Positions 36,092 to 50,047 of a DNA stretch of 64,000 nucleotides are shown in pieces. The translations under genes were made by a program, and so were the position numbers. This DNA is from Armatimonadota bacterium (GTDB taxonomy: Bacteria; Armatimonadota; UBA5829; DSUL01). Within the stretch, counting starts at the first letter, position 1, and each line of letters starts with the position of its first letter. The stretch lies in the NCBI GenBank assembly GCA_039811685.1, contig JBDHZC010000006.1, forward strand, positions 32,001-96,000, given 5' to 3'. The notes below the pieces were generated by a model. It saw nothing but the letters and a program-made list of their open reading frames with translations. It had not been told where the DNA came from and made no database searches.

Positions 36092-36559
36092 ACCGAACTG
36101 CAGGGCCGGCAAGCGCTTCTCCGTTTTTTCCGCAAGCATAGCCGGCCCATTTTTTGACACACTTCACAGCCTGGAACCGGCTGTCTTCCGGCCTGAGTAA
36201 ACGCGGGCAAACTCCTGACATTAGAGCGTGAGCGCCAGGCAGCACACGCGTCTTTGTAACCTTCCATCGGCGTACGTTCGCAGATTGGGAACGCTCCTGG
36301 GCAGCCACGAGTCAAATACTCAAAGTTGAGACTTACGGCCTGATCCATAAAGCCAGCGCACAGAAATGTGCGACAACTGTCTAAATTCGCAACGCCGCGT
36401 ATGATATTATGGAAGATAGAGACTGATCTTTTCTCCAACATCGGGCCCGCATTTGCCGAGCCTGTGCATCGCCTGCGCGTAAATCCTGCGGGCCACATCC
36501 GTCTATCTGGGCGGCAAGTAAGCCTTCGATGTGGGGCCGCTTTGACGCAGGATGATTCT

Positions 36560-39500
36560 GTGACGCCAAAACCCGGAGCATTGACTGGATTTCTCGTTGT
36601 CCTTGGCACTGCGCTCTTGTGTACGCGCGCCATCGCCCTGCCCGTTCTACTAAAGAGCGGAGCATTTGACCCTGCGCGCTCATCCGTCCATCTGCAATCA
36701 ACTCCCACCGACAGCTACTACCTGGTGCAGTTCTCATCGGCGCCTGGAGCTGCTGAGCGTCAGGCCCTTGAAGAAGCGGACGCGACGATTCTCGGCTACA
36801 TCCCGGAGAACTGCTATCTTGTTCAGGCGCAGCCGCAGGCGATGCTGGCTGCCGGACAGATACCGGGTGTCGTCTGGACCGGGCCTTACGCCAGCGCGTA
36901 TCGGATTGCGCCGTCCGTGCCCAACACAGATGCGCCCGTTCATATATCCGTCACGACCTTCCCGGGTGTCAGCGTCAAGAAGCTGATTGCTCAGATGGGG
37001 CTCTCGAGGGAATCGCTCATCGCTTTGTCAGCGTCTGACAGCGGGGACATTTTTTCCGTGAAAGCGACGGGGGCTCAAGCTCATGCCTGGACTCGCCTTG
37101 CGGGGGTGCGTTGGATACAACCGCGCATTCAACCAAAGCTGGCAAACGACATCGCCCGCGGCATTATGAATGTGAACCCGGTCTGGACCGATGTCGGCCT
37201 CTACGGGCAGGGGCAGACGGTGGCAGTATGCGACACCGGCCTTGACGTCGGGGCGACCAGTCCATTGCTGGATATAGACTTTCAGGGCCGTGTGAGCGCT
37301 GCGTTTGCCCTTGGGCGCACGGGACTCACTGACGATCCTCATGGGCATGGCACACATGTCAGCGGGTCAGTTCTCGGGAATGGGAAGCTCAGCGGATCTG
37401 ACCCTTCGACTCACAGCTATCTAAACTCTTACGCAGGAGTGGCGCCAGAAGCAAATCTGATTATGCAGAGCGTGCTGGACGCCAATGGCAATCTCGGTGG
37501 GCTTCCAGCAAATCTCGCGACACTGTTCACACAAGCCTATCAGGCCGGTGCGCGTGTGCACACAAATAGTTGGGGCGCAACAGTGGCGGGCGTCTATGAT
37601 ACTGACGCCAGTCAGGTCGATCAGTTTGTCTGGTCACATCCGGATGCAGTTGTGCTGTTTGCGGCGGGCAATGACGGCGTGGACGCTGACAGTAACGGTG
37701 TTATTGATCCGCAGTCGGTCGGTTCTCCAGGCACCGCCAAGAACTGTATCACTGTGGGCGCAACAGAGTCCGTTCGGTCGTCAGGCGGATATCAGTTTCA
37801 ATGGGGGACTGGTTCCTGGGCCAGCAATTACCCAGCTCCGCCCATCAAGAACGACCTGATCTCAGACAACAGTTTTGGCATGGCAGCTTTCTCCAGCCGC
37901 GGGCCGTGCGAAGATGGGCGAATCAAGCCCGATATTTGCGCCCCAGGCACGAATATCCTGTCTGTGCGCAGTCACAATCCTGCGGCTGGTACAGGCTGGG
38001 GCTCGTACAACGCAGACTATGTGTACATGGGCGGAACGAGCATGGCCACTCCTCTGGCGGCGGGAGCGACGGCGTTGCTGCGGCAATATTTCCAGCAGGT
38101 GAAGGGCATTGACCCTTCCGCCGCCCTGATCAAAGCAACTCTTCTGGTAAGCGCCCGGGACCTGACTCCTGGACAGTATGGCGCCGGCTCATCTCTTGAG
38201 ATTCCTGCCCGACCGAACAACGTCGAAGGCTGGGGACGGGTGGACCTGCAGGCGGCTGTCAACCCCGCACCACCGAATACCCTGCAGCTTGAAGACTACA
38301 AAGCCGGTTTACAGACCGGGGAGATCCGCTCTTTCTCTTTCAGGATCGTTACCGCAGGCGTGCCGCTTCGTATCGCCCTGGCGTGGACGGACTATCCCGG
38401 TGACGTGTCTGCATCCAAAGCCCTTGTGAACGACCTGGATCTACAGGTACACGCGCCGAGCGGCCAGGTCTTTGCGGGCAACGGAACGTCAGACCACGCC
38501 AACAACGTGGAAAGCGTGGACATCGCCTCACCTGAGATCGGCACGTACACGGTGACCGTCAGCGGCTACAGCGTTCCGCACGGACCACAGCCCTTTGCCC
38601 TGGTAGCTCAGGGGGGGCTTCCAAATGCCGCACTCTCCGGACATATTACGTCAACATCTGGCACACCAATCCCCAACGCTGCTATTACCGCAACTTCCCT
38701 CAGCGCGGTCTTCACAGCCTCTTCCAGACCGGATGGCAGTTATGACATCGCTGTCATTCCGGACGATTACAGCGTGGAGGTGTCTAAGAATGGCTGGAGT
38801 TTCAATCCGGTATCGCATAGCGTGACAGTACCTGCCGAAGGCGCCGGGAATGTAGATTTTGTAGGGACAGCCTCTCCCGCCTCCATAAGCGGCTCTGTTT
38901 TTGGCGCCCAGACACAACAGGGCTCCGGAACGTGGCAGTCTGTGCACCCCTATCTTAATAACACAAACGACTCCGTCACAATCTCCGGACCAGCCAATGC
39001 TGTGCGCATGCGGGTGCATTTTGCCCAGATGGCGACAGAGAGCGGGTACGACTTTGTAACGATCAGCGACAGCGATGGCGGAAGCGCGACGAGCTATTCC
39101 GGCAATAACAATGACTTCTGGAGTCCCTGGATAGACGGAAACGCAGTGCGGGTGAATCTTTCATCAGACGTCAGCGTGACGCGGTATGGCTGGCTGATAG
39201 ATGCGTTCCAGGCCACCATTCCAGGTTCGCCGATGACAGGCGTCACAGTTACAGACAGTCTCTCCGGCATCTCGAGCGTCAGCGGCCTCGACGGTTCCTA
39301 CGTATTTCCCAGCGTGCAGCCGCTGCCGACGACCCTTTCAGCTTCGATTGCCGAGCACGTAATAAAGCCGTCACAACGCGACATTGCGCCGACACCGGGG
39401 CAGAGCGTGCAGGGTCAGGATTTTGTGGCTATACCAGAGGTTCCGGTCATCCACGTCAAACTGACTCACAGCTACCCGGGAGACCTGGTTATCAAGACCG

Positions 39501-40408
39501 GTGTTGGAACCGTCGCCAACCCGGTTCTGATACGCACTATCTGGAATCGCCAAACTGCGAGCAATCCGACCCTGACCCTCGATATTCCTGTGGATGAAGG
39601 CAATCCCTACTTTCCGCCGAGCGCCGCCCATCCCTGGTTCCTTCAGATCTGTGATCAGTCTGCCTATGACCAGGGCACACTGCTGGAGTTTTCGATAAGC
39701 AGGAACGGGCGAACGTACGGTTCCTTCCAGACTCCCGCGGCGATAAACGATCTGACCTGTGTGACGGTGAGCGTTCCCTCCCAGACTCCGATTCGAATAG
39801 GCGACGCAAAACAGCTTGCCAACAACACCAGTTGCCTGCTGATGGACAAGATAGTGACGGCCGTGTTCGCCGATCGCATATACGTGCAGGAATCGGATCG
39901 CTCTTCCGCTATCTGTGTGCCAGGAGTCTTTGGAGTCACTGCGGGAGACTGCGTTTCTGTACTGGGCGCAGTTGATCTGATGGGGTGCGAGCGGATTGTA
40001 AATGCGGCTCAGGTGCAGAAGACGGCGCAGGGATCCTGGCCGGTGCGCCCGCTGTTCATCGGAGGCAGGAATGTGGGTGGTGAGCCGCTGTCACCCGTGA
40101 CTCCAGGCTTTGCAGATTCAATTGACCTCAACAACATAGGGTTGCTGGTCACTGTGTCCGGCACGGTACGAAAAACTGATGCAGGCTGGTTCTATGTGGA
40201 TGATGGAACTGCGGCGCCAGACGGCAGCGGGTACGGCGGCATACGCGTGGCCGCCGATGTGCTACAGATACCTCAGACTGGAGCGTTTGTTACCGTGACA
40301 GGAATCTCCAACTGCAGAGACTCTGGCTTTGGCGCAGCGCGCATCATCTATCCAAGATCGCAGGAGGACATTGTAGTTCTCCATGACGCACCCTCACCGC
40401 AACCGTAG
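36560..40408 (+). CDS. Secreted multidomain S8 subtilase (PPC, carboxypeptidase-regulatory-like, CUB-like, P-domain-like, C-terminal recurrent domain)
   Basis: Signal peptide from GTG 36560; catalytic triad VCDTG, HGTHV, GTSMATP; ESGYDFV (CUB-like); HSYPGDL (P-domain-like). Confidence 0.9.
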   Translation: MTPKPGALTGFLVVLGTALLCTRAIALPVLLKSGAFDPARSSVHLQSTPTDSYYLVQFSSAPGAAERQALEEADATILGYIPENCYLVQAQPQAMLAAGQIPGVVWTGPYASAYRIAPSVPNTDAPVHISVTTFPGVSVKKLIAQMGLSRESLIALSASDSGDIFSVKATGAQAHAWTRLAGVRWIQPRIQPKLANDIARGIMNVNPVWTDVGLYGQGQTVAVCDTGLDVGATSPLLDIDFQGRVSAAFALGRTGLTDDPHGHGTHVSGSVLGNGKLSGSDPSTHSYLNSYAGVAPEANLIMQSVLDANGNLGGLPANLATLFTQAYQAGARVHTNSWGATVAGVYDTDASQVDQFVWSHPDAVVLFAAGNDGVDADSNGVIDPQSVGSPGTAKNCITVGATESVRSSGGYQFQWGTGSWASNYPAPPIKNDLISDNSFGMAAFSSRGPCEDGRIKPDICAPGTNILSVRSHNPAAGTGWGSYNADYVYMGGTSMATPLAAGATALLRQYFQQVKGIDPSAALIKATLLVSARDLTPGQYGAGSSLEIPARPNNVEGWGRVDLQAAVNPAPPNTLQLEDYKAGLQTGEIRSFSFRIVTAGVPLRIALAWTDYPGDVSASKALVNDLDLQVHAPSGQVFAGNGTSDHANNVESVDIASPEIGTYTVTVSGYSVPHGPQPFALVAQGGLPNAALSGHITSTSGTPIPNAAITATSLSAVFTASSRPDGSYDIAVIPDDYSVEVSKNGWSFNPVSHSVTVPAEGAGNVDFVGTASPASISGSVFGAQTQQGSGTWQSVHPYLNNTNDSVTISGPANAVRMRVHFAQMATESGYDFVTISDSDGGSATSYSGNNNDFWSPWIDGNAVRVNLSSDVSVTRYGWLIDAFQATIPGSPMTGVTVTDSLSGISSVSGLDGSYVFPSVQPLPTTLSASIAEHVIKPSQRDIAPTPGQSVQGQDFVAIPEVPVIHVKLTHSYPGDLVIKTGVGTVANPVLIRTIWNRQTASNPTLTLDIPVDEGNPYFPPSAAHPWFLQICDQSAYDQGTLLEFSISRNGRTYGSFQTPAAINDLTCVTVSVPSQTPIRIGDAKQLANNTSCLLMDKIVTAVFADRIYVQESDRSSAICVPGVFGVTAGDCVSVLGAVDLMGCERIVNAAQVQKTAQGSWPVRPLFIGGRNVGGEPLSPVTPGFADSIDLNNIGLLVTVSGTVRKTDAGWFYVDDGTAAPDGSGYGGIRVAADVLQIPQTGAFVTVTGISNCRDSGFGAARIIYPRSQEDIVVLHDAPSPQP
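39791..40380 (+). repeat. Recurrent ~200-aa domain, copy 1 (C-terminus of S8 protease)
   Basis: IGDAK..KIVTA..IYVQESDRSSAI..NNIGLLVTVSG..FYVDDG..GIRV..VTGIS..RSQEDI. Confidence 0.8.
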
Positions 40409-40448
40409 TGGACTGATCTGGATTTACGACACTGGCGTGAGCGCATCC

Positions 40449-40997
40449 CTAGAGCAACATCGCAGCGGCAATTACAAACGCTGCTGACCAGATCGCCACT
40501 GCAAGCTCTCGCAGGATGAGATGCGGCCAGCAGAGAACCGTTCCGGGCCCCTGGCATGGCCATCTGTGCGGAGCGGTATCGGAAGCCGCCACCTCACTAT
40601 ACTCACGCTCACGAGACCAACCCGGGTCTAAAGGAGCAGCCCTGCCCGGGCCAAAGATGAGCCAGACCGCAGACCCAACGGCCCCAGTAGCGACCGACAG
40701 CAGCAGCAGGCGCAGGCCAACGTGCGCTTGGGACGTCCACCTTAGAGCAAAACCCAGCAGTGCGGCGGCTGCAGCGCCTTTCCACATTCCAGCCAGAGCG
40801 TGATTCCAAAGATTCCTGGACAAAACTCGCAGCGGCCACACTCTATAGAATCCATTTACCAGCACAAACTCAGCCTTCTCGCGTTCATTGCGCGGAACGA
40901 AGAATCCCCTGTTTCGCAGAGCTTTTCGCATGCGCGCGATCTTTCCAGCCAGCCCGGGAGCCACCGCCGGGTCGATACCTGCGGGCAGTGGTTTCAT
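40449..40997 (-). CDS. Hypothetical membrane protein
   Basis: ATG overlaps the upstream stop (ATGA); about three hydrophobic segments. Confidence 0.55.
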   Translation of the reverse strand: MKPLPAGIDPAVAPGLAGKIARMRKALRNRGFFVPRNEREKAEFVLVNGFYRVWPLRVLSRNLWNHALAGMWKGAAAAALLGFALRWTSQAHVGLRLLLLSVATGAVGSAVWLIFGPGRAAPLDPGWSREREYSEVAASDTAPHRWPCQGPGTVLCWPHLILRELAVAIWSAAFVIAAAMLL

Positions 40998-42208
40998 TTC
41001 ACGCGGGTATGGCAAGTGATCTCCTCCACATGCTCCAGCGCCTGCATGCTGATTGCGTCTTCAAGGCAGATGCGCGCGCACAGCCCGCAACGGGTGCATT
41101 TGCTGTCGTCCTTCAGTAGCACGGCCACGTGTCCCGCGCCCGCCCGCACCTGAGCGCCAGGCACCATGGCAATTACCTGCTCCGGGCAAATCTCCACGCA
41201 AAGGCCACACATCGTGCAAGCGTCAGCGTCGAAGACAGTATTGATGTCACAACGAAGACAGCGCGCTCCCTGTTGCTGCGCGACAACTTCCGGATAGCTG
41301 AGCATGACTTCGACTGGTTCTGTCATCCGTTCAGGCTTCTGGCGCGGGTACACATCCCAGTTCACCGGCATCCTGTAGGCGGGTAGCGGAATGGGGGTAA
41401 GGGCCCGACAGGTGCGCTCTTCCAGCGTCTGCGCTGTGAGGTGTTCGTGAACCTGACGCGCTACCTGCTGCGCGTTTGCCATAGCATAAATGAAGGGCTC
41501 TGGGCCAATCGCGGCATTCCCCGCAACAAACGTACTCGGCGCATCCACGTGTGGTCCTGGATGTCCGGACGCCAGGACAGCAGCGTCAAACTGAGACTCA
41601 AGCTCGCCCAGAGCTTCCCGGCCGATTTTCTGCGCCAGACGAAGCTCGACACCGAGAAGGCCAATGGCGTCAACCTCCGCCTGAAGGACTGCGGCAGGGA
41701 GAACAGACTCAGGCATAGCACACAGCTGTCCGCCAGCCCGGTTTTTCTCTTCAAACACAACGCAGCGATATCCGAGGCGCGCCAGGTCGTGGGACAGCGT
41801 TAGCCCGGCTGGCCCAGCGCCTACGACAGCTACACTCATGCCGTTTGGCTCCGGATGGGCCGATCCGGACGCGGTAGACAGCTCCAGCCCGTAGTGAGAG
41901 TCCACTAAAGCCTCTGGCCCAAGCTGTTGACAGACAAACGTCTTCAAGTCCCGAATAGAGACAGGAGCGTCAATATTCCGGCGATTGCAGGCATCCTCAC
42001 AGGGCGCAGAACATGCGCGACCGCAGACACTGGCGAGCGGATTGCGCGCCCGGGCAATTCGATAGGCATCCAGGTAGCGCCCCTCGCTGATGGCCACAAC
42101 GTAGCCGCGCGCATCGGTCCCCAGCGGACACGCCACCCGGCACGCGACATTGTGGGAATAATAATCCAAATCCGGCTTGCGCGTTTTGAACTGTTGAGAC
42201 TCTGCCAT
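40994..42208 (-). CDS. GltD-like Fe-S flavoprotein with C-terminal 4Fe-4S dicluster, apparently lacking the central NAD(P)-binding domain
   Basis: CRVACP, VCGRACSAPCEDAC, GAGPAG, RCLRC, CxxCxxCxxxCP and CxxCxxCxxxCL; RBS GAGGGAG. Confidence 0.8.
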   Translation of the reverse strand: MAESQQFKTRKPDLDYYSHNVACRVACPLGTDARGYVVAISEGRYLDAYRIARARNPLASVCGRACSAPCEDACNRRNIDAPVSIRDLKTFVCQQLGPEALVDSHYGLELSTASGSAHPEPNGMSVAVVGAGPAGLTLSHDLARLGYRCVVFEEKNRAGGQLCAMPESVLPAAVLQAEVDAIGLLGVELRLAQKIGREALGELESQFDAAVLASGHPGPHVDAPSTFVAGNAAIGPEPFIYAMANAQQVARQVHEHLTAQTLEERTCRALTPIPLPAYRMPVNWDVYPRQKPERMTEPVEVMLSYPEVVAQQQGARCLRCDINTVFDADACTMCGLCVEICPEQVIAMVPGAQVRAGAGHVAVLLKDDSKCTRCGLCARICLEDAISMQALEHVEEITCHTRVK

Positions 42209-42459
42209 AGCTCCCTCTGCCAGAAGCGTCATCGTACTGAACCTGATTCCACGCGGGGACCTAACGACGCTCCATCGCTTTACCCCCATCCGCGGCTACC
42301 GTGCCGAGCAGATCATAGGCTGGTTTACTACGCACGGCAAGAGCTTCTGCGCCGATTACCAGACAGGCTCCACTCCTCGAGGAGCTGCAGGAACGCGAAG
42401 AAAGCATGCGCGGCGCACTCCAGGGGAAGTTTGCGGTAATCACGGGCGGCGCTGGCGCC

Positions 42460-44622
42460 CTAGAACTTCATCCCGAGCTTCATTTCGGCTTCGTATCTCC
42501 GTCTCTGTTCGGCAGCCGCCTCGTCATCGATGCGAGACCCGCTAAGAGACAGATTGAAGTCGCTGCCAAGGTTGCGCGTGACGCCGAGACTGATGCGCCG
42601 GGACGACACGCCCGCGCTCTCCTGCGTCTCGCTGTACTCATAGCCGCCGGTCAGTTGCGTAGCCCGCGCCACTGCGACACCCAGTCCCAGCCGCGTCTGG
42701 AACCACTGCCGCCCGATGGCGTACTCGTCTTTGTAGGAGTAGTCGCCCGTCAGCGCCAGAATTCCGAATGTTGACTTCAGACCGAGCGAGCGGCTGGAGT
42801 ACTGCTGCGGGTTTCCCTTGCTGTCTTCTGGGTTATCCGCCAGAGCCGCAGTCAGCCCGAGATACTTCCAGGGCTCCAGAGTGAAGCTGAGCATCGTGGT
42901 GTCGATGCTGTAGTCTCCGGCGTCCCGGGTCTTGTAGCCGCCTGCAATGTTGAAATAGTCGAGAGGTTTGGCGGAGGCATTGATATCCTTCACCGCCAGT
43001 GTATTATCGTCGGAGTCCGAAAACGCATACCCACCGGATAGTTTCAGGGTCTTGTAAGGCTGGGCATCCAGACGGATGTCGTGCGTGCGAAAGCCTGCGC
43101 TTGCCTGCCGGTCAGTGATGCCGGCGGAAAGCTTCCAGCGGTCGCTGGCAGCAGTCGCGACACGCAGCCCGGCGCTGTTGTCTGCTCCGCCGAGATCGCT
43201 TCCTCGTCCAGCGAAGTTCGCCTGCAGTTCGACAACCTTGAGAGGCCTGGCTTTGACTCCAATATCAACCGCCGTAGTGTCCTCACCTGACTGTACAGTG
43301 TTGGCCTGGAAAGCCGCCGTTAACGCAACGTCCTTGAGTGGCGCGGCGCTGAGGCCCACATTCAACGCGCTGGCGGATCCGGTGGCCTCGGAGTCCGTGA
43401 GCTTCATCCCCGCATTGACAGCCACATCCTTCAGGAGGCTTGTATTCAGCGTCACCTGTTGCGTAGTCGTGCGGCTGAGCGCATCCTGTGGACCCTGAAG
43501 CGTATCCGTCCATACAAACTGTGTGCTGGTTTTCTGGCCGATGGCGGAGGCCAGCTTGAACTCGTTGACCTGCACGTCAGTGACCCCGCTGCCGGTCTGC
43601 GTCGCCGTAGCGGTGCGAGTAAACAGAAAAGCTGTTCCGGGCGCAACGTTGTAGCCAAGCGTGTTGTTGAGCGTTGTCACTGTCTTGGCGCCCCCGGAAA
43701 AATCCCTGCGGTCATAAGACGATCCCAGCGACAGGCGAGAGCCTTCCGGCTTCCACGCGAGCGCCAGATTTTGCTGCCCTTCACCGCCCTTGAAGCCGTA
43801 GTCCTTGGCTGCGGAGAAGGCCTGCCCCGCGCTGACGTATGAGCCCGTGATGCTGAGATCGCCAATCTGCGTCGTGCCGCCAAACCTGGCCGCCGCGCGC
43901 TGCCAGAGACTGCCAGAGTTGGCGGCGCCTCCCTGATCCATATACACGGAAGAGGCAAAGCTGGTGTTGGCGCCAAGCTGGGTCTTGCCCTGAAAGCCCA
44001 GAATGGCGTCTGCAGCATTTGGATCTGTGGCGCTCTGGCGATAGAGAGCACTCATCTGTAAGCTGGAGGAGCCCGAAGAATAAAGATTCAGGGCGAGCGG
44101 AAGGGCAAATCCACTACCACTGCGTACAGAAGTTGCGGGGTCGAGGCCGTACTCCACCTTGGCCATACTGCTGGCGCCCAGAGGCGAGGTGAACGCGATA
44201 GTCCCGGAAGCGGGGTCCAGATTGTAGTCAACTCCGCGCAGACCCGGACGGCCGTCAATCAAAACCGTCTCACGTCCCGGAACGATACCTTTCCACGAGA
44301 GTCTGAACGGACCACGAGAGCCATTGCCGGAAATGACATCCCTCGCAAAACCGCGCTCCAGATCGGAGGAGCCAGCGGCGCTGAGGGTGGTTCCACCAGG
44401 AGAAATCTGTGCCGCACGGCCCACCCCTGACTCGCTGAAGCTCTGCGATGCAAATCCTGCCTTGACGGCAGGCAGCCAGACGGCCGGCAGGCACAGACAC
44501 AGACAAATGGCCTTCCGGCTTAGCGCCGGCAGACCACTGAAGCGCGCGCCCGGTTTTGCTCCAGTCACATGCATCTTTGACTCCGTACTATGAGACGCCC
44601 GAAGACGCATAATGTTTCCCAT
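42460..44622 (-). CDS. Large exported beta-rich protein, probable outer-membrane barrel
   Basis: Signal peptide, long run of alternating amphipathic strands, C-terminal KLGMKF; RGVDYNLDPASGTIAF motif. Confidence 0.65.
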   Translation of the reverse strand: MGNIMRLRASHSTESKMHVTGAKPGARFSGLPALSRKAICLCLCLPAVWLPAVKAGFASQSFSESGVGRAAQISPGGTTLSAAGSSDLERGFARDVISGNGSRGPFRLSWKGIVPGRETVLIDGRPGLRGVDYNLDPASGTIAFTSPLGASSMAKVEYGLDPATSVRSGSGFALPLALNLYSSGSSSLQMSALYRQSATDPNAADAILGFQGKTQLGANTSFASSVYMDQGGAANSGSLWQRAAARFGGTTQIGDLSITGSYVSAGQAFSAAKDYGFKGGEGQQNLALAWKPEGSRLSLGSSYDRRDFSGGAKTVTTLNNTLGYNVAPGTAFLFTRTATATQTGSGVTDVQVNEFKLASAIGQKTSTQFVWTDTLQGPQDALSRTTTQQVTLNTSLLKDVAVNAGMKLTDSEATGSASALNVGLSAAPLKDVALTAAFQANTVQSGEDTTAVDIGVKARPLKVVELQANFAGRGSDLGGADNSAGLRVATAASDRWKLSAGITDRQASAGFRTHDIRLDAQPYKTLKLSGGYAFSDSDDNTLAVKDINASAKPLDYFNIAGGYKTRDAGDYSIDTTMLSFTLEPWKYLGLTAALADNPEDSKGNPQQYSSRSLGLKSTFGILALTGDYSYKDEYAIGRQWFQTRLGLGVAVARATQLTGGYEYSETQESAGVSSRRISLGVTRNLGSDFNLSLSGSRIDDEAAAEQRRRYEAEMKLGMKF

Positions 44623-44716
44623 GGCCTCCTTCCTGTGAAAGACTTCGGCTGCACACCGATGCGCACTTTGCCCTGCCGCGTAGATATGTTACACTGAAGC
44701 TGGAGAGGAATGTAAT

Positions 44717-47176
44717 ATGATTCGACTCTACCCTCTGATACTGGCCCTTGCAGGGGTATTGTGGTCTGCGCCCGCTCACGCGCTTCTTGTGTGTCTGGAC
44801 GCCGGCGCCCCGATCAACGAAAGCACTGGCCAGATTCAACTCAACGCGGCAGCGCTGAAGGCTACCGGCACGCAGTACGTTCGCGTAAACTTTATTCTAG
44901 GACCGTGGAGCAATCCCAATGACGCCACCAAACGCGGCCCGCAGAATATGAGCTGGAAGCAAACTTACGACCAGATCATCCACAGCCTGACTTCTCAGGG
45001 GATTGAGGTGTACGCTCTGATAGGTGCGCAGGCTGTCCACAGCTCGGCAGGCGGCAACTACAACAGCGATCAATGGGTCAATGACTACGTAGCAAACTTC
45101 ACCACCATCGTTGGCCAATTCAAAGATCGCGTGCGGGTTTACGAGTCTTTCAATGAACCCAACGACTGGGCCGGCGGCACAACCGCCCAGGTGCAGCCAT
45201 TCTGGTTTGCAAAGATGCTGCAAAACATCTACCTTTCGGTGAAGATCAATAACGGGCACCAGAGTGACCAGAGCTGGCAGGTAACGCTGGTGAGTGGGCC
45301 TGGCTTCAGCCACGACATGGACACCGTCGCCACTTACATGCAGCAGACCTACCAGGCGGGTATCAACCAGCTTTCGTGGACGTCAGTCAAGAACAGCTAC
45401 GGAACGTATCCGTTGGACGGCATCGGCTATCACATCTATGTCGCTCAGGGATCAACAGACACAACCACAGTCCGCAACGCTGTCAACAAGAACCTCAACG
45501 CAATCTGGAGTACAGTCAAGAGCTTTGAGGGGTCCAACACGCCTAAGAAGCTCTGGGTATCGGAGTGGAGCTGGAACACGGCATCGGTTTCAGAGAGTGG
45601 GCAGGCCAGCAATCTGACGACTGTGTTCAATCTGTTCAAAAGCGACGCACGCGTCGCGCTGGCGAGCTGGTTTCAGATTACGGACTTTGGGGCCTCCGAC
45701 AAGTGGGGGCTCTTTCGGGCGGGCGGCCTCACTGAGGCTAACAAGAAGCCGTCCTGGCAGGCCTTCCACGATTTTGCGGGGGCGCAGAACACTCCCGGCT
45801 CCATTACAGGCACAGTGCGTGACACACTGGGCAATTACCTGCAGGGTGTACAAGTAACCGCTTCGCCGGGCGCTTTCTCTACTACGACAGCGGCAGACGG
45901 AAGTTATACTTTATCTAATATACCTGTGGGAACTTATACTGTAGCTGCACAGAAGTTTGGCTACCGCCCTGGCAGTCAAGCGGTGAATGTGACATCGGGC
46001 ACAGCGGCAACGACCTCTTTTGTCCTGGGGTTACCAGCTACAGTCACATCTCCGGCCGGCGCAAAGCAGAGAACGGATGGGAGCTTCGTCAGACTGGACA
46101 ACGCAGTCGTGACCGCAAACTTTGCCGGAGACCGCATCTATATCGAGGCGGCCGATCGGTCCAGCGGCATCGGAGTAACCGGCGCGCAGGCGGCAGTGGG
46201 AGACCGCGTGAACGTGACGGGTACGATGGTAAGTGCCGACGGAGAGCGTGTGTTCACATCGGCCGGCGTTCAAGTGGTTGCCTCAGGCCAGCCTGTCCCT
46301 TTTCCGCTGTCTATGCGCAACTCCACCCTTGGGGGTGAATCATTTGCGGCTCAGGGAGGTGTTGTGGATAATGCGACCACCAATCCTGCCACTCCGGGCA
46401 TTGGGCGCAACAATGTGGGACTTCTGGTTACAACATGGGGAAACGTCACGTTTGTTGACGGTCCGGGTGCGTGGTTTTACATTGACGACGGCTCAGGGCT
46501 GAAAGACGGGTCTGGCCATGTCGGTGTACGGGTCGCGGCTTCCGGGCTCACTTTGCCCGCCGAAGGGAACCTGGTGCGCATCACAGGTATCAGCGGAGTG
46601 ACGCGGATTGGCTCCAACAATGCCAGAATTGTGAGGGCGCGGCAGCAGAGCGATATTGTAAGGCTCTACCCTCAAACGCTGGAGCCAATCGTCGGCAACG
46701 CCAGTTTTGAGGATGGAGCGCTTGCGCCCTGGAGCGCCTGCGGGTCAACGGATAACATTATTACGGGGACGTGGTTTGGTGGAATCACGGCGCACTCTGG
46801 CAATGCCTTCGCCGGCACGGCCACGAACGGAGGAGTGCGGTCCGGTGGCTACTACCAGACGGTGGCTGTGGAGCCGGGCACGTCCTGTGTGGCCAAAGTC
46901 TGGAGCGCGGTATTTCGAGCTGCCAATTCCACCACATCCACGCTGTCGCGTATCGGGATTGACCCGAGTGGCGGAACGAATCCCGCTTCAGCGAACATCG
47001 CCTGGTCCGCCTGGGACATGCAGAGCGCAGACTACACCTTCGTCTGGCGGCAACTCCAAACACCTGCGGTTACCTCGATTTCTTCTACTGTGACTATCTT
47101 TCTGGACTTTCAGCAAAGCGAAAGCGCGGGCTGGCATGTCAACTGCTTCGACGACGCAACGCTTGAGGTCCACTGA
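44717..47176 (+). CDS. Secreted clan GH-A glycoside hydrolase with accessory domains
   Basis: Signal peptide; FNEPN acid/base, GYHIY, WVSEW nucleophile; carboxypeptidase-regulatory-like domain; recurrent domain; C-terminal NASFE CBM-like domain. Confidence 0.8.
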   Translation: MIRLYPLILALAGVLWSAPAHALLVCLDAGAPINESTGQIQLNAAALKATGTQYVRVNFILGPWSNPNDATKRGPQNMSWKQTYDQIIHSLTSQGIEVYALIGAQAVHSSAGGNYNSDQWVNDYVANFTTIVGQFKDRVRVYESFNEPNDWAGGTTAQVQPFWFAKMLQNIYLSVKINNGHQSDQSWQVTLVSGPGFSHDMDTVATYMQQTYQAGINQLSWTSVKNSYGTYPLDGIGYHIYVAQGSTDTTTVRNAVNKNLNAIWSTVKSFEGSNTPKKLWVSEWSWNTASVSESGQASNLTTVFNLFKSDARVALASWFQITDFGASDKWGLFRAGGLTEANKKPSWQAFHDFAGAQNTPGSITGTVRDTLGNYLQGVQVTASPGAFSTTTAADGSYTLSNIPVGTYTVAAQKFGYRPGSQAVNVTSGTAATTSFVLGLPATVTSPAGAKQRTDGSFVRLDNAVVTANFAGDRIYIEAADRSSGIGVTGAQAAVGDRVNVTGTMVSADGERVFTSAGVQVVASGQPVPFPLSMRNSTLGGESFAAQGGVVDNATTNPATPGIGRNNVGLLVTTWGNVTFVDGPGAWFYIDDGSGLKDGSGHVGVRVAASGLTLPAEGNLVRITGISGVTRIGSNNARIVRARQQSDIVRLYPQTLEPIVGNASFEDGALAPWSACGSTDNIITGTWFGGITAHSGNAFAGTATNGGVRSGGYYQTVAVEPGTSCVAKVWSAVFRAANSTTSTLSRIGIDPSGGTNPASANIAWSAWDMQSADYTFVWRQLQTPAVTSISSTVTIFLDFQQSESAGWHVNCFDDATLEVH
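46046..46666 (+). repeat. Recurrent ~200-aa domain, copy 2 (internal in the glycosidase)
   Basis: GAK..DG..VVTA..IYIE..DRSSGI..NNVGLLVTTWG.V..FYIDDGSG..GVRV..ITGIS..RQQSDI. Confidence 0.8.
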
Positions 47177-47212
47177 AAAATTCTTTCTACAAAAAACCAG
47201 TATTGCAAGTGA

Positions 47213-47241
47213 TTGACAGCAACGGTCTCAAGTGGTAGCCT
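47213..47241 (+). promoter_or_regulatory. Sigma70-type promoter for the paralog pair
   Basis: TTGACA-17 nt-TAGCCT with a TG extension. Confidence 0.5.
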
Positions 47242-47314
47242 TGATTGATAATGCGGGAGGAGCCGGGGGATGGATCACATGTCCGAGCACGCCCCGCAAA
47301 GAAAGGGAGAAACG

Positions 47315-48079
47315 ATGAAAGCTTCTTTTAGCCTTCTGGTCCTGGCTGCGACTGCTGTGTGCGCTAACGCAGCGCCAGTCGTAACCACCACCCAGGGTAA
47401 TGACGGCGATCTGGCAAAAAGCCCCAGCGCGATTGATCTGATTGAAGGCAAGATTGCGACAGAGCTGCCCGGAGACAAGGGATGGCATCCAGCCAATAGC
47501 GACCCACTGGATAAGTTGCCAGCGTTCACTGACGGTCAGGGAATGCGCGCAACCGGTCTGACCGGTTTGCTGAACGACTTTCCAGGCCCGGGCACACCGA
47601 CCAAACTTATTCAGTACGATCTGAACTCTCCCACAGACATCTGGGAGATTGACGTGTTCTCTGGCAACAACGGCAGAGACGGCCGCGTGTTTCACACTTA
47701 TACGGTGGCCTTCTCAACAGACGGCGCCAATTACAGCAATCCGATCTACGTGCAGTCGCATCCCTCTGGCACTCTCAACAACGCGAACAACAATCAGTGG
47801 GCGAGAGTGTTGACGCAGCTCACGGATAGCGCCGGCCCGCTGGCGACTGGTGTCACCAACCTGCGCTTCAGCTTCTACGCAGTGGACAACACTCAGGGAC
47901 AGATGCGGGATCCGTTTGACGGTGTTAACCCGTTTACAGGTATTGACGACGGACTGGGCGCACCGATCTCATCTCCATTGATTCTCGAGATTGATGTGGT
48001 TCCGGAGCCGGCTTCCGTAGCCGCGATGGCCCTTGGGCTGACCGGATTTGCCGCGACCTTCCGCCGACGGCGCGCGTAA
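47315..48079 (+). CDS. PEP-CTERM protein (discoidin/F5-8-like passenger domain)
   Basis: Signal peptide; C-terminal VPEPASVAAMALGLTGFAATFRRRRA. Confidence 0.9.
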   Translation: MKASFSLLVLAATAVCANAAPVVTTTQGNDGDLAKSPSAIDLIEGKIATELPGDKGWHPANSDPLDKLPAFTDGQGMRATGLTGLLNDFPGPGTPTKLIQYDLNSPTDIWEIDVFSGNNGRDGRVFHTYTVAFSTDGANYSNPIYVQSHPSGTLNNANNNQWARVLTQLTDSAGPLATGVTNLRFSFYAVDNTQGQMRDPFDGVNPFTGIDDGLGAPISSPLILEIDVVPEPASVAAMALGLTGFAATFRRRRA

Positions 48080-48146
48080 ATCCAGCGTTCAAGTCATGGG
48101 AAGCGCAGTGCCCACTCTGCGCTTCCCCTGCCGAAAGGAACAATCG

Positions 48147-49493
48147 ATGAAAGGCTATTTTCTGCCGCTTGCTGCCGCTGTGCTGGCAGTATCTCTGAGT
48201 GCCCCCGGGATCACTGCACCCGTTGTCGTGACGACGCAGGGTGAGCTGGGCGATCTGGCAGCCGCCTACAGCACCACTGATCTGATCGAGGGAATGATCG
48301 CAACCGAGCTGCCTGGCGACAAAGGTTGGCATCCTGCCAACGCCGACCCCTTGGACAAGCTGCCGGCTTTCACTGACGGACAGGGCATGCGGCCAAGCGG
48401 CCTTACGGGCCTTCTGAACGATTTCCCAGGCGCGGGCACACCGACAAAGCTGATTCAATATCAGTTTGACAGCCCAAAAGACATTGACGAGATTCGTGTT
48501 TTCAGCGGGAACAAGAATAATACTGACGGACGTGTTTTTCACACTTACACTGCAGAGTTCTCACCCAACGGGATAGACTTCACGCCGCCGATCTATGTCC
48601 AGTCGCATCCCTCTGGCACTATTAACAATGACGCCGGAATATTCAACCACTGGCACAACGCGTTGACGCAGTTGACGGACGATTCCGGAAAAGTTGCTTA
48701 TGGCGTGCGCTATTTGCGACTCAAATTCTATTCCGTTGACAACACCGGTGGTCAGATGCGCGATCCGTTTGACGGCGAGAACCCGTTTACCGGTACGGAT
48801 GATGGATTGAGCGCAGGCTTTGTCTCTCCGTTGATTCTGGAGATCGACGTGTTCGGCGCCAACAGTGTTGCGCAGCCAGTTGCCACTATTGGCGAAGCGC
48901 GCGCAAAGCCGCTGGGGATGCTGGTTTCACTGAGTGACAAGGTTGTCACCAAGAGCGCTACAACCGAGTTCTTTATGGAAGAGGCGAACCGCAGCGCCGG
49001 AATCAGAGTAGTTTCTGCAGAGAACCCACCGGCAAACCAGAAGGTGTCGATCACGGGACAGATTGTAACCTCGTCCACCAACGGCGAGAAGTATCTGGAA
49101 GCCACGGGACAGCCTGCCACTGTTGGGGCGGCTGCGACAGTTGGCCCACTCGATATGCGAAACGGCGTCATCGGAGGTCAATCCGCAACTGGTAGCGCAG
49201 GGCTGGCGACAGATGGTCTTCTGGTCACGACATGGGGCAAAGTCACCGGCATTGATATTGGCAACAGCGTCGTGTACATTGACGATGGCAGCAATGCAGC
49301 CAACGATACGCCGGTCGGAACTTTAGGCGAGCAGGTCGCGGGGCTTAAGGTCGGTCCTGGTGATGTGTTCAGCCTCCTGCCGGGTCAGTATGTCGGTGTG
49401 ACGGGGATTTCCCGTCTGGACGCCGGCGGCCTCGGCATTATCCGACGCGTAGAGCCGCTGGACTTTGGCTCTTCTATAGTGAGTCTCGACTGA
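48147..49493 (+). CDS. Secreted paralog of the upstream PEP-CTERM protein, ending in the recurrent ~200-aa domain instead
   Basis: Shares IATELPGDKGWHPAN.DPLDKLPAFTDGQGMR, DGRVFHTYT, PIYVQSHPSGT, QMRDPFDG.NPFTG.DDGL and SPLILEIDV with 47315..48079. Confidence 0.9.
   Translation: MKGYFLPLAAAVLAVSLSAPGITAPVVVTTQGELGDLAAAYSTTDLIEGMIATELPGDKGWHPANADPLDKLPAFTDGQGMRPSGLTGLLNDFPGAGTPTKLIQYQFDSPKDIDEIRVFSGNKNNTDGRVFHTYTAEFSPNGIDFTPPIYVQSHPSGTINNDAGIFNHWHNALTQLTDDSGKVAYGVRYLRLKFYSVDNTGGQMRDPFDGENPFTGTDDGLSAGFVSPLILEIDVFGANSVAQPVATIGEARAKPLGMLVSLSDKVVTKSATTEFFMEEANRSAGIRVVSAENPPANQKVSITGQIVTSSTNGEKYLEATGQPATVGAAATVGPLDMRNGVIGGQSATGSAGLATDGLLVTTWGKVTGIDIGNSVVYIDDGSNAANDTPVGTLGEQVAGLKVGPGDVFSLLPGQYVGVTGISRLDAGGLGIIRRVEPLDFGSSIVSLD
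48885..49490 (+). repeat. Recurrent ~200-aa domain, copy 3
   Basis: IGEAR..DKVVT..EE.NRSAGIRV..PL.MRN..IGG..GLLVTTWGKV..YIDDGS..GLKV..VTGIS. Confidence 0.8.
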
Positions 49494-49627: not shown

Positions 49628-50047
49628 ATGAGGAGTATGAAAAATAGAACACTGGCTCTCTTAGCCACAGCCTTTGTGCTGATAACCTCCGTGGGAGTCT
49701 GGGCAGCGGACACTCACCCGAAAACTCAGAACGGGCGACTCGATCCGCAGGCAAGACACCGCGCCATAGGCTGTCTGCAGAAAGCCGCAGACGCCGCCGG
49801 CGTAACTCCGGAGCAGAAGGCTCAGATTAAACAGATCAACGACAAGTTCCGGGCGGACGTGAAGGCCTTGCGCCAATCTGACCTGCCTCAGGACCAGAAA
49901 CGCGCAAAGTTGCGCGAGTTGAGGATCGCGCACCGCGAGGAGATCAAGAAGGTTTTGACTACACAGCAACTGACGGCGATCAAGAAGTACATGAAAGAGA
50001 ACTGTCCGCGAACTGGCGACGCTGCCCGACAAGGCAAAAAGGCATAG
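49628..50047 (+). CDS. Spy/CpxP-like periplasmic helical chaperone
   Basis: Signal peptide; VTPEQK and LTTQQ (LTxxQ) motifs. Confidence 0.75.
   Translation: MRSMKNRTLALLATAFVLITSVGVWAADTHPKTQNGRLDPQARHRAIGCLQKAADAAGVTPEQKAQIKQINDKFRADVKALRQSDLPQDQKRAKLRELRIAHREEIKKVLTTQQLTAIKKYMKENCPRTGDAARQGKKA

Follow-up and report, generated by a model that had tools for sequence, protein, structure and literature searches.

A domain of about 200 amino acids (aa), here named OB2, is shared by three proteins with signal-peptide-like starts that are encoded in a 64,000-nucleotide stretch of DNA from an Armatimonadota bacterium (GenBank assembly GCA_039811685.1, contig JBDHZC010000006.1, positions 32,001 to 96,000; the whole of this stretch is referred to as the window). 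The name denotes a tandem OB-fold unit, in keeping with the fold that is predicted for the domain. An original prediction, made from the window alone, had proposed that this domain is a lineage-specific module for the anchoring, docking or export of the proteins that bear it. We have followed up this proposal by analyses of the window, of its own 3.42-Mb genome (G000), of other Armatimonadota genomes and of a large protein library, and the distribution of OB2 and its relationship to PEP-CTERM proteins and exosortase are described below.

The OB2-bearing genes of the window

The three carrier genes and the features associated with them are summarized in Table 1. The open reading frame (ORF) of the first carrier, a subtilase (36368-40408, + strand), spans 1346 aa and has its signal-peptide-like start at GTG 36560 (MTPKPGALTGFLVVLGTALL); in Pfam its domains are arranged in the order Peptidase_S8 (37205-38179), PPC-like, CarboxypepD_reg and then the OB2 tail. 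The second carrier is an 819-aa protein in which CarboxypepD_reg is the sole Pfam family found, and the third, for which no family was matched, is encoded by an ORF of 481 aa (48048-49493) with a signal-peptide-like start at ATG 48147 (MKGYFLPLAAAVLAV). Signal peptides had been predicted for all three proteins, and a crude hydrophobicity rule finds signal-peptide-like starts in each of them.

Table 1. Coordinates of the OB2 carriers and associated features within the window.
Feature	Coordinates	Strand	Basis or remark
Secreted S8 subtilase gene	36560..40408	+	Pfam scan and signal-peptide rule
Tandem OB-fold tail (predicted fold), copy 1	39791..40381	+	8 residues short of stop codon
Gene for 819-aa secreted protein	44717..47176	+	Signal-peptide-like start MIRLYPLILALAGVLW at 44717
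CarboxypepD_reg (prealbumin-like) spacer domain	45800..46027	+	Pfam E 6e-15
Tandem OB-fold tail (predicted fold), copy 2	46046..46666	+	Internal, 169 aa after it
CBM-like beta-sandwich, 169 aa	46667..47173	+	Fold match TmCBM61, TMq 0.70 / TMt 0.80
Paralogue of third carrier gene	47270..48079	+	PEP-CTERM signal 47999-48073 replaces OB tail
Gene for secreted protein with discoidin-like domain and OB2 tail	48147..49493	+	ORF opens 48048
Tandem OB-fold tail (predicted fold), copy 3	48882..49490	+	Runs to stop codon

The three window copies of OB2 can be aligned over their full length with 38 invariant columns, and the second and third copies show 44% and 30% identity, respectively, to the first. 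All of the ordered motifs by which the domain had been recognised (viz. IGDAK/IGEAR, VVT, Y-x-E-x-x-DRSSGI, PL..GG, GLLVT-x-WG-x-V, Y[IV]DDG, G[IVL][RK]V, and TGIS) are present in the order first given, and a hidden Markov model (HMM) iterated over the genome places the domain at 39791-40381, 46046-46666 and 48882-49487, within a few bases of the boundaries first proposed. An HMM built from the three window copies alone found 81 further matches in the same genome (best E 3e-49), and hence the similarity represents real homology and not chance. A characterised Pfam match, which the original prediction had asked to be looked for, was found for the domain neither in Pfam (2025 copy) nor in NCBIfam 20.0, no model of which covers OB2 in the window proteins or in 30 isolated copies. 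Full-text literature searches on Armatimonadota secreted domains likewise yielded no paper on OB2, as judged from the result listings and the opening parts of the abstracts.

The regions that precede the OB2 tails are less clearly identified. The second carrier had been labelled a GH-A glycosidase; this label is weaker than was claimed, as residues 1-358 of the protein (44717-45790) have no Pfam, NCBIfam or PDB sequence match. The stretch YESFNEPND within these residues looks like a motif of clan GH-A, and the glycosidase identity is putative. For the discoidin-like designation of the third carrier, a match to F5_F8_type_C does exist (E 0.0017), but it falls below the cut-off and is seen only in the paralogue of this protein. 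The additional domain that had been claimed to follow OB2 in the second carrier (about 165 aa) proved to be real and comprises 169 aa. A PDB sequence search with this region was empty and it was identified instead by its fold, its model being a beta-sandwich (pLDDT 88) that resembles the carbohydrate-binding modules (CBMs) CBM61, CBM16 and CBM4. In several other carriers of the genome the same module is positioned before OB2; its occurrence on either side of OB2 indicates that the domain order is permutable and that OB2 need not be terminal. The 819-aa protein also matches NF052345 (Kustd1514 S-layer; E 2e-12, residues 356-516). This match corresponds to CarboxypepD_reg, and as none of the 30 isolated OB2 domains match the model, a link of OB2 to the S-layer was rejected.

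Two other ORFs of this part of the window have signal-peptide-like starts. One of these, on the reverse strand (42460-44622), encodes 720 aa of Ser/Thr/Gly-rich alternating sequence with the C-terminal end ...MKF; neither Pfam nor NCBIfam gives a match for this protein, which has the appearance of an outer-membrane beta-barrel and is present in 38 of 41 related genomes. It was rejected as a partner of OB2, since it occurs in a genome that lacks OB2 (G021) and was not found in one that is rich in it (G030). The other (49628-50047, + strand) directly follows the third carrier and encodes 139 aa with a charged, helical-looking body.

Census, predicted fold and taxonomic spread of OB2

OB2 was counted in the 3.42-Mb genome with the iterated HMM over stop-to-stop ORFs. 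The domain is present in 84 ORFs, with one copy in each, and the number of copies per genome, which the original prediction had proposed to check, is therefore not small. Approximately 1 ORF in 33 (84 of roughly 2800 crude gene calls) thus carries a 200-residue domain that is unnamed in the databases, and the carriers include most of the recognisable secreted hydrolases of this genome. The end of OB2 lies within 10 residues of the stop codon in 70 of the 84 ORFs, 11-40 residues from it in 4, and more than 40 residues from it in 10. Signal-peptide-like starts are found in 75 of the 84 carriers vs 534 of 1376 other ORFs of at least 350 aa; the rule employed, based on charge and hydrophobicity, is crude and permissive, and some of the exceptions are fragments at contig ends. 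A check for cytoplasmic carriers was thus favourable to the proposal, the 80 carriers that were scanned having partner domains of extracytoplasmic type.

The domains that accompany OB2 (its passengers) were identified by scanning these 80 whole carriers against Pfam at E≤1e-5, together with the three window proteins (E≤0.1). They include proteases and glycosidases (viz. S8, alpha-amylase, GH10-like, GH39-like, arabinofuranosidase-like, GHL10, glucoamylase, and Glyco_hydro_cc), other enzymes (viz. Amidase_2, Amidase_3, EEP, metallophosphoesterase, GSDH, NAGPA, and FGE-sulfatase), and beta-helix/NosD, LTD, PQQ propeller and lectin-like domains, usually on fn3, Pur_ac_phosph_N, CarboxypepD_reg or Big_7 spacers, while 35 of the 80 scanned carriers show no Pfam family at this threshold. 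In one carrier (L047) OB2 is N-terminal to the FGE-sulfatase domain. As the passengers are unrelated extracytoplasmic domains, a substrate common to all of them is unlikely. Proteins with more than one OB2 unit also occur: the library protein P0004 consists of a signal peptide, a leader of about 70 aa and three OB2 units, and P0022 is also multi-copy, within the range of 2-3 units. The leader (…S.LRI.GSVGQA.AG.ANS..…WLGLW…) precedes OB2 in small and in 2-3-copy proteins (P0004, P0022, L120 and L121), of which the two encoded in G000, L120 and L121, show no Pfam family at E≤1e-5.

The two OB-fold-like halves that had been suggested for the domain are seen in its AlphaFold2 model, in structure superposition and in a profile comparison of one half with the other. 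The model, which was computed from an alignment of 30 genome copies, is all-beta and comprises two predicted OB barrels (pLDDT 95.7, pTM 0.90). In VIA-align, residues 1-82 and 85-197 separately fit classical OB folds (Z 10-11 for each barrel), among them those of Methanococcus maripaludis RPA (Z 11.1), AspRS (Z 11.0), Pyrococcus abyssi RPA14 (Z 10.3), YgiW (Z 9.9) and MCM; the first half is superposed on YgiW (1nnx) at Z 9.9 with an rmsd of 2.0 over 75 residues (Foldseek TMt 0.66). When the profiles of the two halves are compared, they match (hhalign probability 94.7%, E 6e-8); the halves are thus homologous, and the unit can be traced to a single OB barrel that was duplicated internally. For the whole unit, the best Foldseek match is the tandem-OB domain of HIN-200 (TM 0.42-0.45, 9-14% identity), which like OB2 has two OB folds in one unit of about 200 aa. 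A prediction of a two-copy OB2 complex, carried out without controls, gave a score of 0.00 and weighs neither for nor against self-association.

Sequence matches of OB2 to known OB folds are weak (viz. RPA14, E 0.003; the N-terminal OB fold of an EEP nuclease, E 0.05; YgiW, E 0.12). Among the 30 isolated copies, Pfam gives tRNA_anti-codon in 8 (best E 8.9e-5), RMI2 in 4 and BOF in 3, and one carrier (L104) matches PF01336 tRNA_anti-codon as a whole protein with 32.2 bits (cut-off 27). The BOF family (PF04076; YgiW/YdeI, 1nnx) resembles OB2 in being an exported, periplasmic bacterial OB fold; however, BOF proteins are small, single-domain and stand-alone, whereas OB2 is a tandem unit fused to large enzymes, and the BOF models remain below cut-off for OB2 (PF04076 in 3/30, best E 0.091; TIGR00156 YgiW in 2/30, best E 0.079). 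ExeM/NucH nucleases resemble the OB2 carriers in having an N-terminal OB fold on a secreted enzyme, the matches again being weak (NF033681 in 3/30 copies, best E 0.056; PDB 9sf8, E 0.051). Both ExeM/NucH and HIN-200 bind DNA, whereas the isolated OB2 domains are acidic, with a median pI of 5.2 and a net negative charge in 62 of 80.

The taxonomic spread of OB2 is limited. In the class to which the window belongs, OB2 was detected (E≤1e-10) in 48 of 53 genomes, the usual number of matches ranging from 20 to over 60 (these counts being lower bounds). In a sample of 301 Armatimonadota genomes, it was found in 31 of the 34 genomes of this class, whereas 20 of the 267 genomes from other classes show only 1-2 matches each, mostly at E 1e-6 to 1e-15. 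The expansion of OB2 is hence a trait of one class and not of the phylum, and the description of the domain as lineage-specific holds in that its spread is restricted, the lineage in question being a single Armatimonadota class. A library of 1.84 billion cluster representatives (clusters at 50% identity) contains 6372 proteins that match OB2 at E≤1e-3 and 2253 at E≤1e-30; short members of the family are recorded as "hypothetical protein" in the source records and have no Pfam domain. Matches under other taxonomic labels comprise five in a metagenome-assembled genome labelled Acidobacteriaceae (L033 = G308), two of them adjacent on a 296-kb contig, as well as P0154 and P0159 on short contigs labelled Phycisphaerales and Bathyarchaeia. 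The presence of OB2 under labels outside Armatimonadota may be due to mis-binning or gene transfer.

Association of OB2 with PEP-CTERM proteins and exosortase

A relationship between OB2 and PEP-CTERM tails is evident in the window itself. The gene at 47270-48079 encodes a protein that is 68% identical over 242 aa to the third carrier, encoded downstream of it; the former ends in PEP-CTERM (22.4 bits to TIGR02595, cut-off 16), whereas the latter ends in OB2. The genome contains 61 PEP-CTERM-like ORFs by regular expression, of which 5 were judged false by eye, leaving about 56. In 13 of these the passenger domain also occurs in an OB2 carrier (BLASTP E≤1e-6); neighbouring gene pairs account for four of the 13 tail swaps, with identities of 68%, 59%, 31% and 29%. 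PEP-CTERM (TIGR02595, PF09721) is like the OB2 tail in its occurrence in the same genomes, in neighbouring genes and on the same passenger domains. The two tails differ in kind, as PEP-CTERM consists of a motif of about 25 aa with a transmembrane helix and a basic cluster, whereas OB2 is a soluble folded domain. The OB2 tails of the window proteins contain no PEP motif, hydrophobic helix or Arg-rich end, and OB2 is thus not an exosortase substrate of the known kind. Six tandem PEP-CTERM genes in G000 (C7:84698-90674, - strand) have a variant tail, IPEPAFFQMGALIGMSGLGLLRLRKRS, the usual tails being VPEP[AGS]S...

The genes for the two kinds of proteins also lie next to each other more often than expected. 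An OB2 gene adjoins 14 of 54 PEP-CTERM genes vs a random mean of 2.8, which is five times chance, and the number 14 was reached in none of 2000 shuffles. Other genes with signal-peptide-like starts are not enriched beside OB2 genes (23 of 359, a level that was reached in 136 of 1000 shuffles).

The same relationship is seen in the co-inheritance of the three features. In 41 related genomes, OB2, PEP-CTERM and exosortase are found together in the same 37 and are missed in the same 4 (G011, G014, G020, and G021). Of five further genomes of the class, four (G313, G317, G318, and G324) contain all three features and one (G321) contains none, which brings the total for the class to 46 genomes tested, 41 of them with OB2, PEP-CTERM and exosortase all present and 5 with all three missing. 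Exosortase/PEP-CTERM is the only co-inherited system that was found. The numbers of OB2 and PEP-CTERM matches are correlated across genomes (Spearman rho 0.74). DUF1559-type pseudopilin genes, which served as a control, are present in 41 of 41 genomes, are most numerous where OB2 is poor, and are not correlated with OB2 in their counts (rho 0.18).

Of the three exosortase genes of the genome, at least two are located in clear exopolysaccharide (EPS) loci that also contain Wza, Wzc, EpsI, a flippase and a priming transferase, and Wza- and Wzc-like genes are found next to the third. A CsaB-like transferase is present in the second exosortase locus; a pyruvylated polysaccharide was rejected as the ligand of OB2, since this transferase is sporadic (12 of 41 genomes) and its occurrence is unrelated to the OB2 pattern. 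A search of the genomes without OB2 for an orthologue of the window S8 protease found none at E≤1e-10, an empty result that by itself shows little. The only S8 proteases of G011 (L128) and G021 (L129) end in a region of about 250-270 aa with a GWN[ML][IV]GNPF motif. A replacement of OB2 by this tail was rejected, as the region has 1-2 matches in these genomes and five in G000, where four of the copies are clustered at C1:714-730 kb.

Possible roles of OB2

We consider it quite possible, though in our judgement it falls a little short of an even chance, that OB2 is a non-covalent localisation module acting in parallel with PEP-CTERM anchoring. In this role the domain would keep exported enzymes on the cell surface or within the matrix; that it binds at all, what its ligand is and where its carriers are finally located are matters that we infer from the evidence above. 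In this proposal, the tandem module, formed from one OB barrel by internal duplication, is joined to hydrolases and adhesin-like proteins exported by Sec, in most cases as their final domain. OB2 would have no catalytic role and would bind, non-covalently, one shared extracytoplasmic partner, thereby retaining diverse enzymes at the surface or in the matrix. This route would run parallel to that of PEP-CTERM and exosortase, with the same passengers taking either tail, often in neighbouring duplicate genes, and the partner would be a component confined to organisms that have the exosortase system. The original prediction had already cautioned that the position of the domain suits a binding or anchoring module better than a cleaved terminal signal, and this caveat was right: with its internal, N-terminal and repeated (2-3) copies, OB2 looks more like a module for binding or anchoring than like a cleaved export signal. 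The diversity of the passengers and the occurrence of separate CBM-like modules in the same proteins argue against a role of OB2 in binding substrates. SLH domains and dockerins may be regarded as analogues, as they too are non-catalytic, sometimes repeated, and present on many exoenzymes with a common partner; their folds and sequences are unrelated to those of OB2, their partners are a pyruvylated wall polymer and cohesin, respectively, and neither SLH (PF00395) nor dockerin (PF00404) was detected in 83 carriers (E≤0.1 for the three window proteins, E≤1e-5 for the others).

A number of observations weigh against this proposal. The conserved positions of OB2 are mostly glycines, together with a D-x-G turn typical of OB folds; they look structural and hence provide no obvious ligand site. 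Exosortase occurs without OB2 in 188 of the 267 genomes from other classes and one genome of the class (G015) has 30 PEP-CTERM matches and only 2 of OB2, and the link is therefore one-directional. The five non-carrier genomes belong to three genera and related genomes are not independent, so that the joint absence may represent only two or three evolutionary losses, and the same pattern could result from a lifestyle change common to these genomes and not from a physical link. The 14 PEP-CTERM neighbours of OB2 genes are unrelated to each other, and one receptor family among them was therefore rejected. General loss of EPS was rejected as the cause of the pattern, because Wza-like and Wzc-like genes are present in all five of the genomes with few or no OB2 copies; as export of the Wza/Wzc type is retained without OB2, a binding of OB2 to EPS in general is unsupported. 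The enrichment of prepilin-type genes near OB2 genes, which is considered below, would fit a role in secretion.

A more specific form of the localisation proposal, which we regard as speculative and rather unlikely, is that a single surface-display system dependent on exosortase has two arms, the PEP-CTERM tails and the OB2 tails, with OB2 docking on a layer or glycan built by exosortase. PEP-CTERM proteins would in this case be fixed by exosortase, whereas OB2 enzymes would be docked on the processed protein layer or its glycan, and gene duplication followed by a tail swap would switch a passenger between "fixed" and "docked" forms.

A different and unlikely explanation, to which we give about one chance in a handful, is that OB2 is an export or sorting signal, the folded tail being recognised in the periplasm by a secretion machine (e.g. 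one like the type II secretion system, with pseudopilin-like proteins); the cargo would cross the outer membrane, after which removal of the tail might follow, as happens to the C-terminal domain (CTD) of the type IX secretion system (T9SS). The terminal position of the tail in 70 of the 84 carriers and the Sec-type starts of these proteins are consistent with this role, and so are the genes that surround them: 8 of 32 prepilin-type DUF1559-like genes adjoin OB2 genes vs a random mean of 1.6, and for 15 members of the 36-member pseudopilin family an OB2 gene is no more than two genes away. It is on account of this enrichment that export retains the probability given here. The 36 genes of this family in G000 (GFTLIELLVVIAIIAILAAILFPVF ... 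DGHV; DUF1559-like), e.g. C1:176658-177539, C1:564558-565508 and C2:328507-329361, are often on the same strand as the OB2 genes near to them. However, 10 of the 84 OB2 copies are internal or N-terminal, the CBM-like module occurs on either side of the domain, and in some proteins a short leader is followed by 2-3 tandem copies. The pseudopilin family is moreover present in 41 of 41 relatives and most abundant in the OB2-poor genomes G011, G015, G020 and G038, and it is thus independent of OB2; among the few candidates tested, no secretion component showed the phyletic pattern of OB2. The T9SS CTD (Por_Secre_tail) of Bacteroidota resembles OB2 as a lineage-restricted, C-terminal module on dozens of unrelated Sec-exported proteins. 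It is a single beta-sandwich of about 80-100 aa that is located at the extreme C-terminus and is cleaved by a sortase-like enzyme, whereas OB2 has about 200 aa and two predicted OB barrels and is sometimes internal, N-terminal or repeated. The T9SS models PF18962 and TIGR04183 have no match in the window proteins (E≤0.1) or in 30 isolated OB2 domains (E≤1).

It is somewhat more doubtful that OB2 binds an environmental polymer (viz. polysaccharide, peptidoglycan or extracellular DNA) and concentrates enzymes on their substrate instead of on the cell. OB folds bind oligosaccharides and nucleic acids, tandem OB2 copies would fit avidity, and the weak matches to ExeM/NucH (best E 0.056), 9sf8 and tRNA_anti-codon OB folds point in the same direction. 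On the other hand, the substrates of the passengers are unrelated (proteins, starch, xylan-type glycans, peptidoglycan, and phosphoesters), separate CBM-like modules are found in the same proteins, and the acidic character of OB2 (median pI 5.2) makes the binding of extracellular DNA unlikely; a polymer-binding role would also leave the joint absence of OB2 and exosortase unexplained.

A further and improbable explanation is that OB2 tails bind each other or a protein scaffold, with multi-OB2 hubs building an enzyme mesh like that of cohesin and dockerin. Proteins made up of a signal peptide, the ~70-aa leader and 2-3 OB2 units do exist (P0004 and P0022), and OB folds mediate protein contacts in the RPA and RMI cores, both of which are among the fold matches; no candidate scaffold family was found, however, and the neighbouring PEP-CTERM proteins are mutually unrelated. 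Lastly, OB2 might serve only its own protein, as a folding aid, a solubility or stability domain or a protease shield without a shared partner, for which its compact, very stable-looking all-beta structure and the lack of an evident ligand site could be cited, but it is very improbable, since a need for the same 200-aa helper in 84 unrelated passengers would be difficult to explain, as would the interchange of OB2 and PEP-CTERM on the same passenger or the loss of OB2 together with exosortase.

A module shared by exported proteins is in itself a known kind of thing, whereas the OB2 family, the predicted tandem-OB fold in this proposed role and the tie to exosortase were found neither in Pfam and NCBIfam nor in the literature searched. 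The identification of the OB2 ligand would reveal the way in which exoenzymes are arranged in this little-studied, polymer-degrading phylum and would let thousands of metagenomic proteins be annotated, and the domain could be of use as a new tag for display or retention. The strict co-inheritance of OB2 with exosortase and PEP-CTERM also provides a testable entry into the exosortase system, the destination of whose cargo is, to our knowledge, still unknown. If OB2 and PEP-CTERM tails are indeed two arms of one system, then OB2 would represent the first folded docking domain tied to exosortase and a first handle on where its cargo goes.

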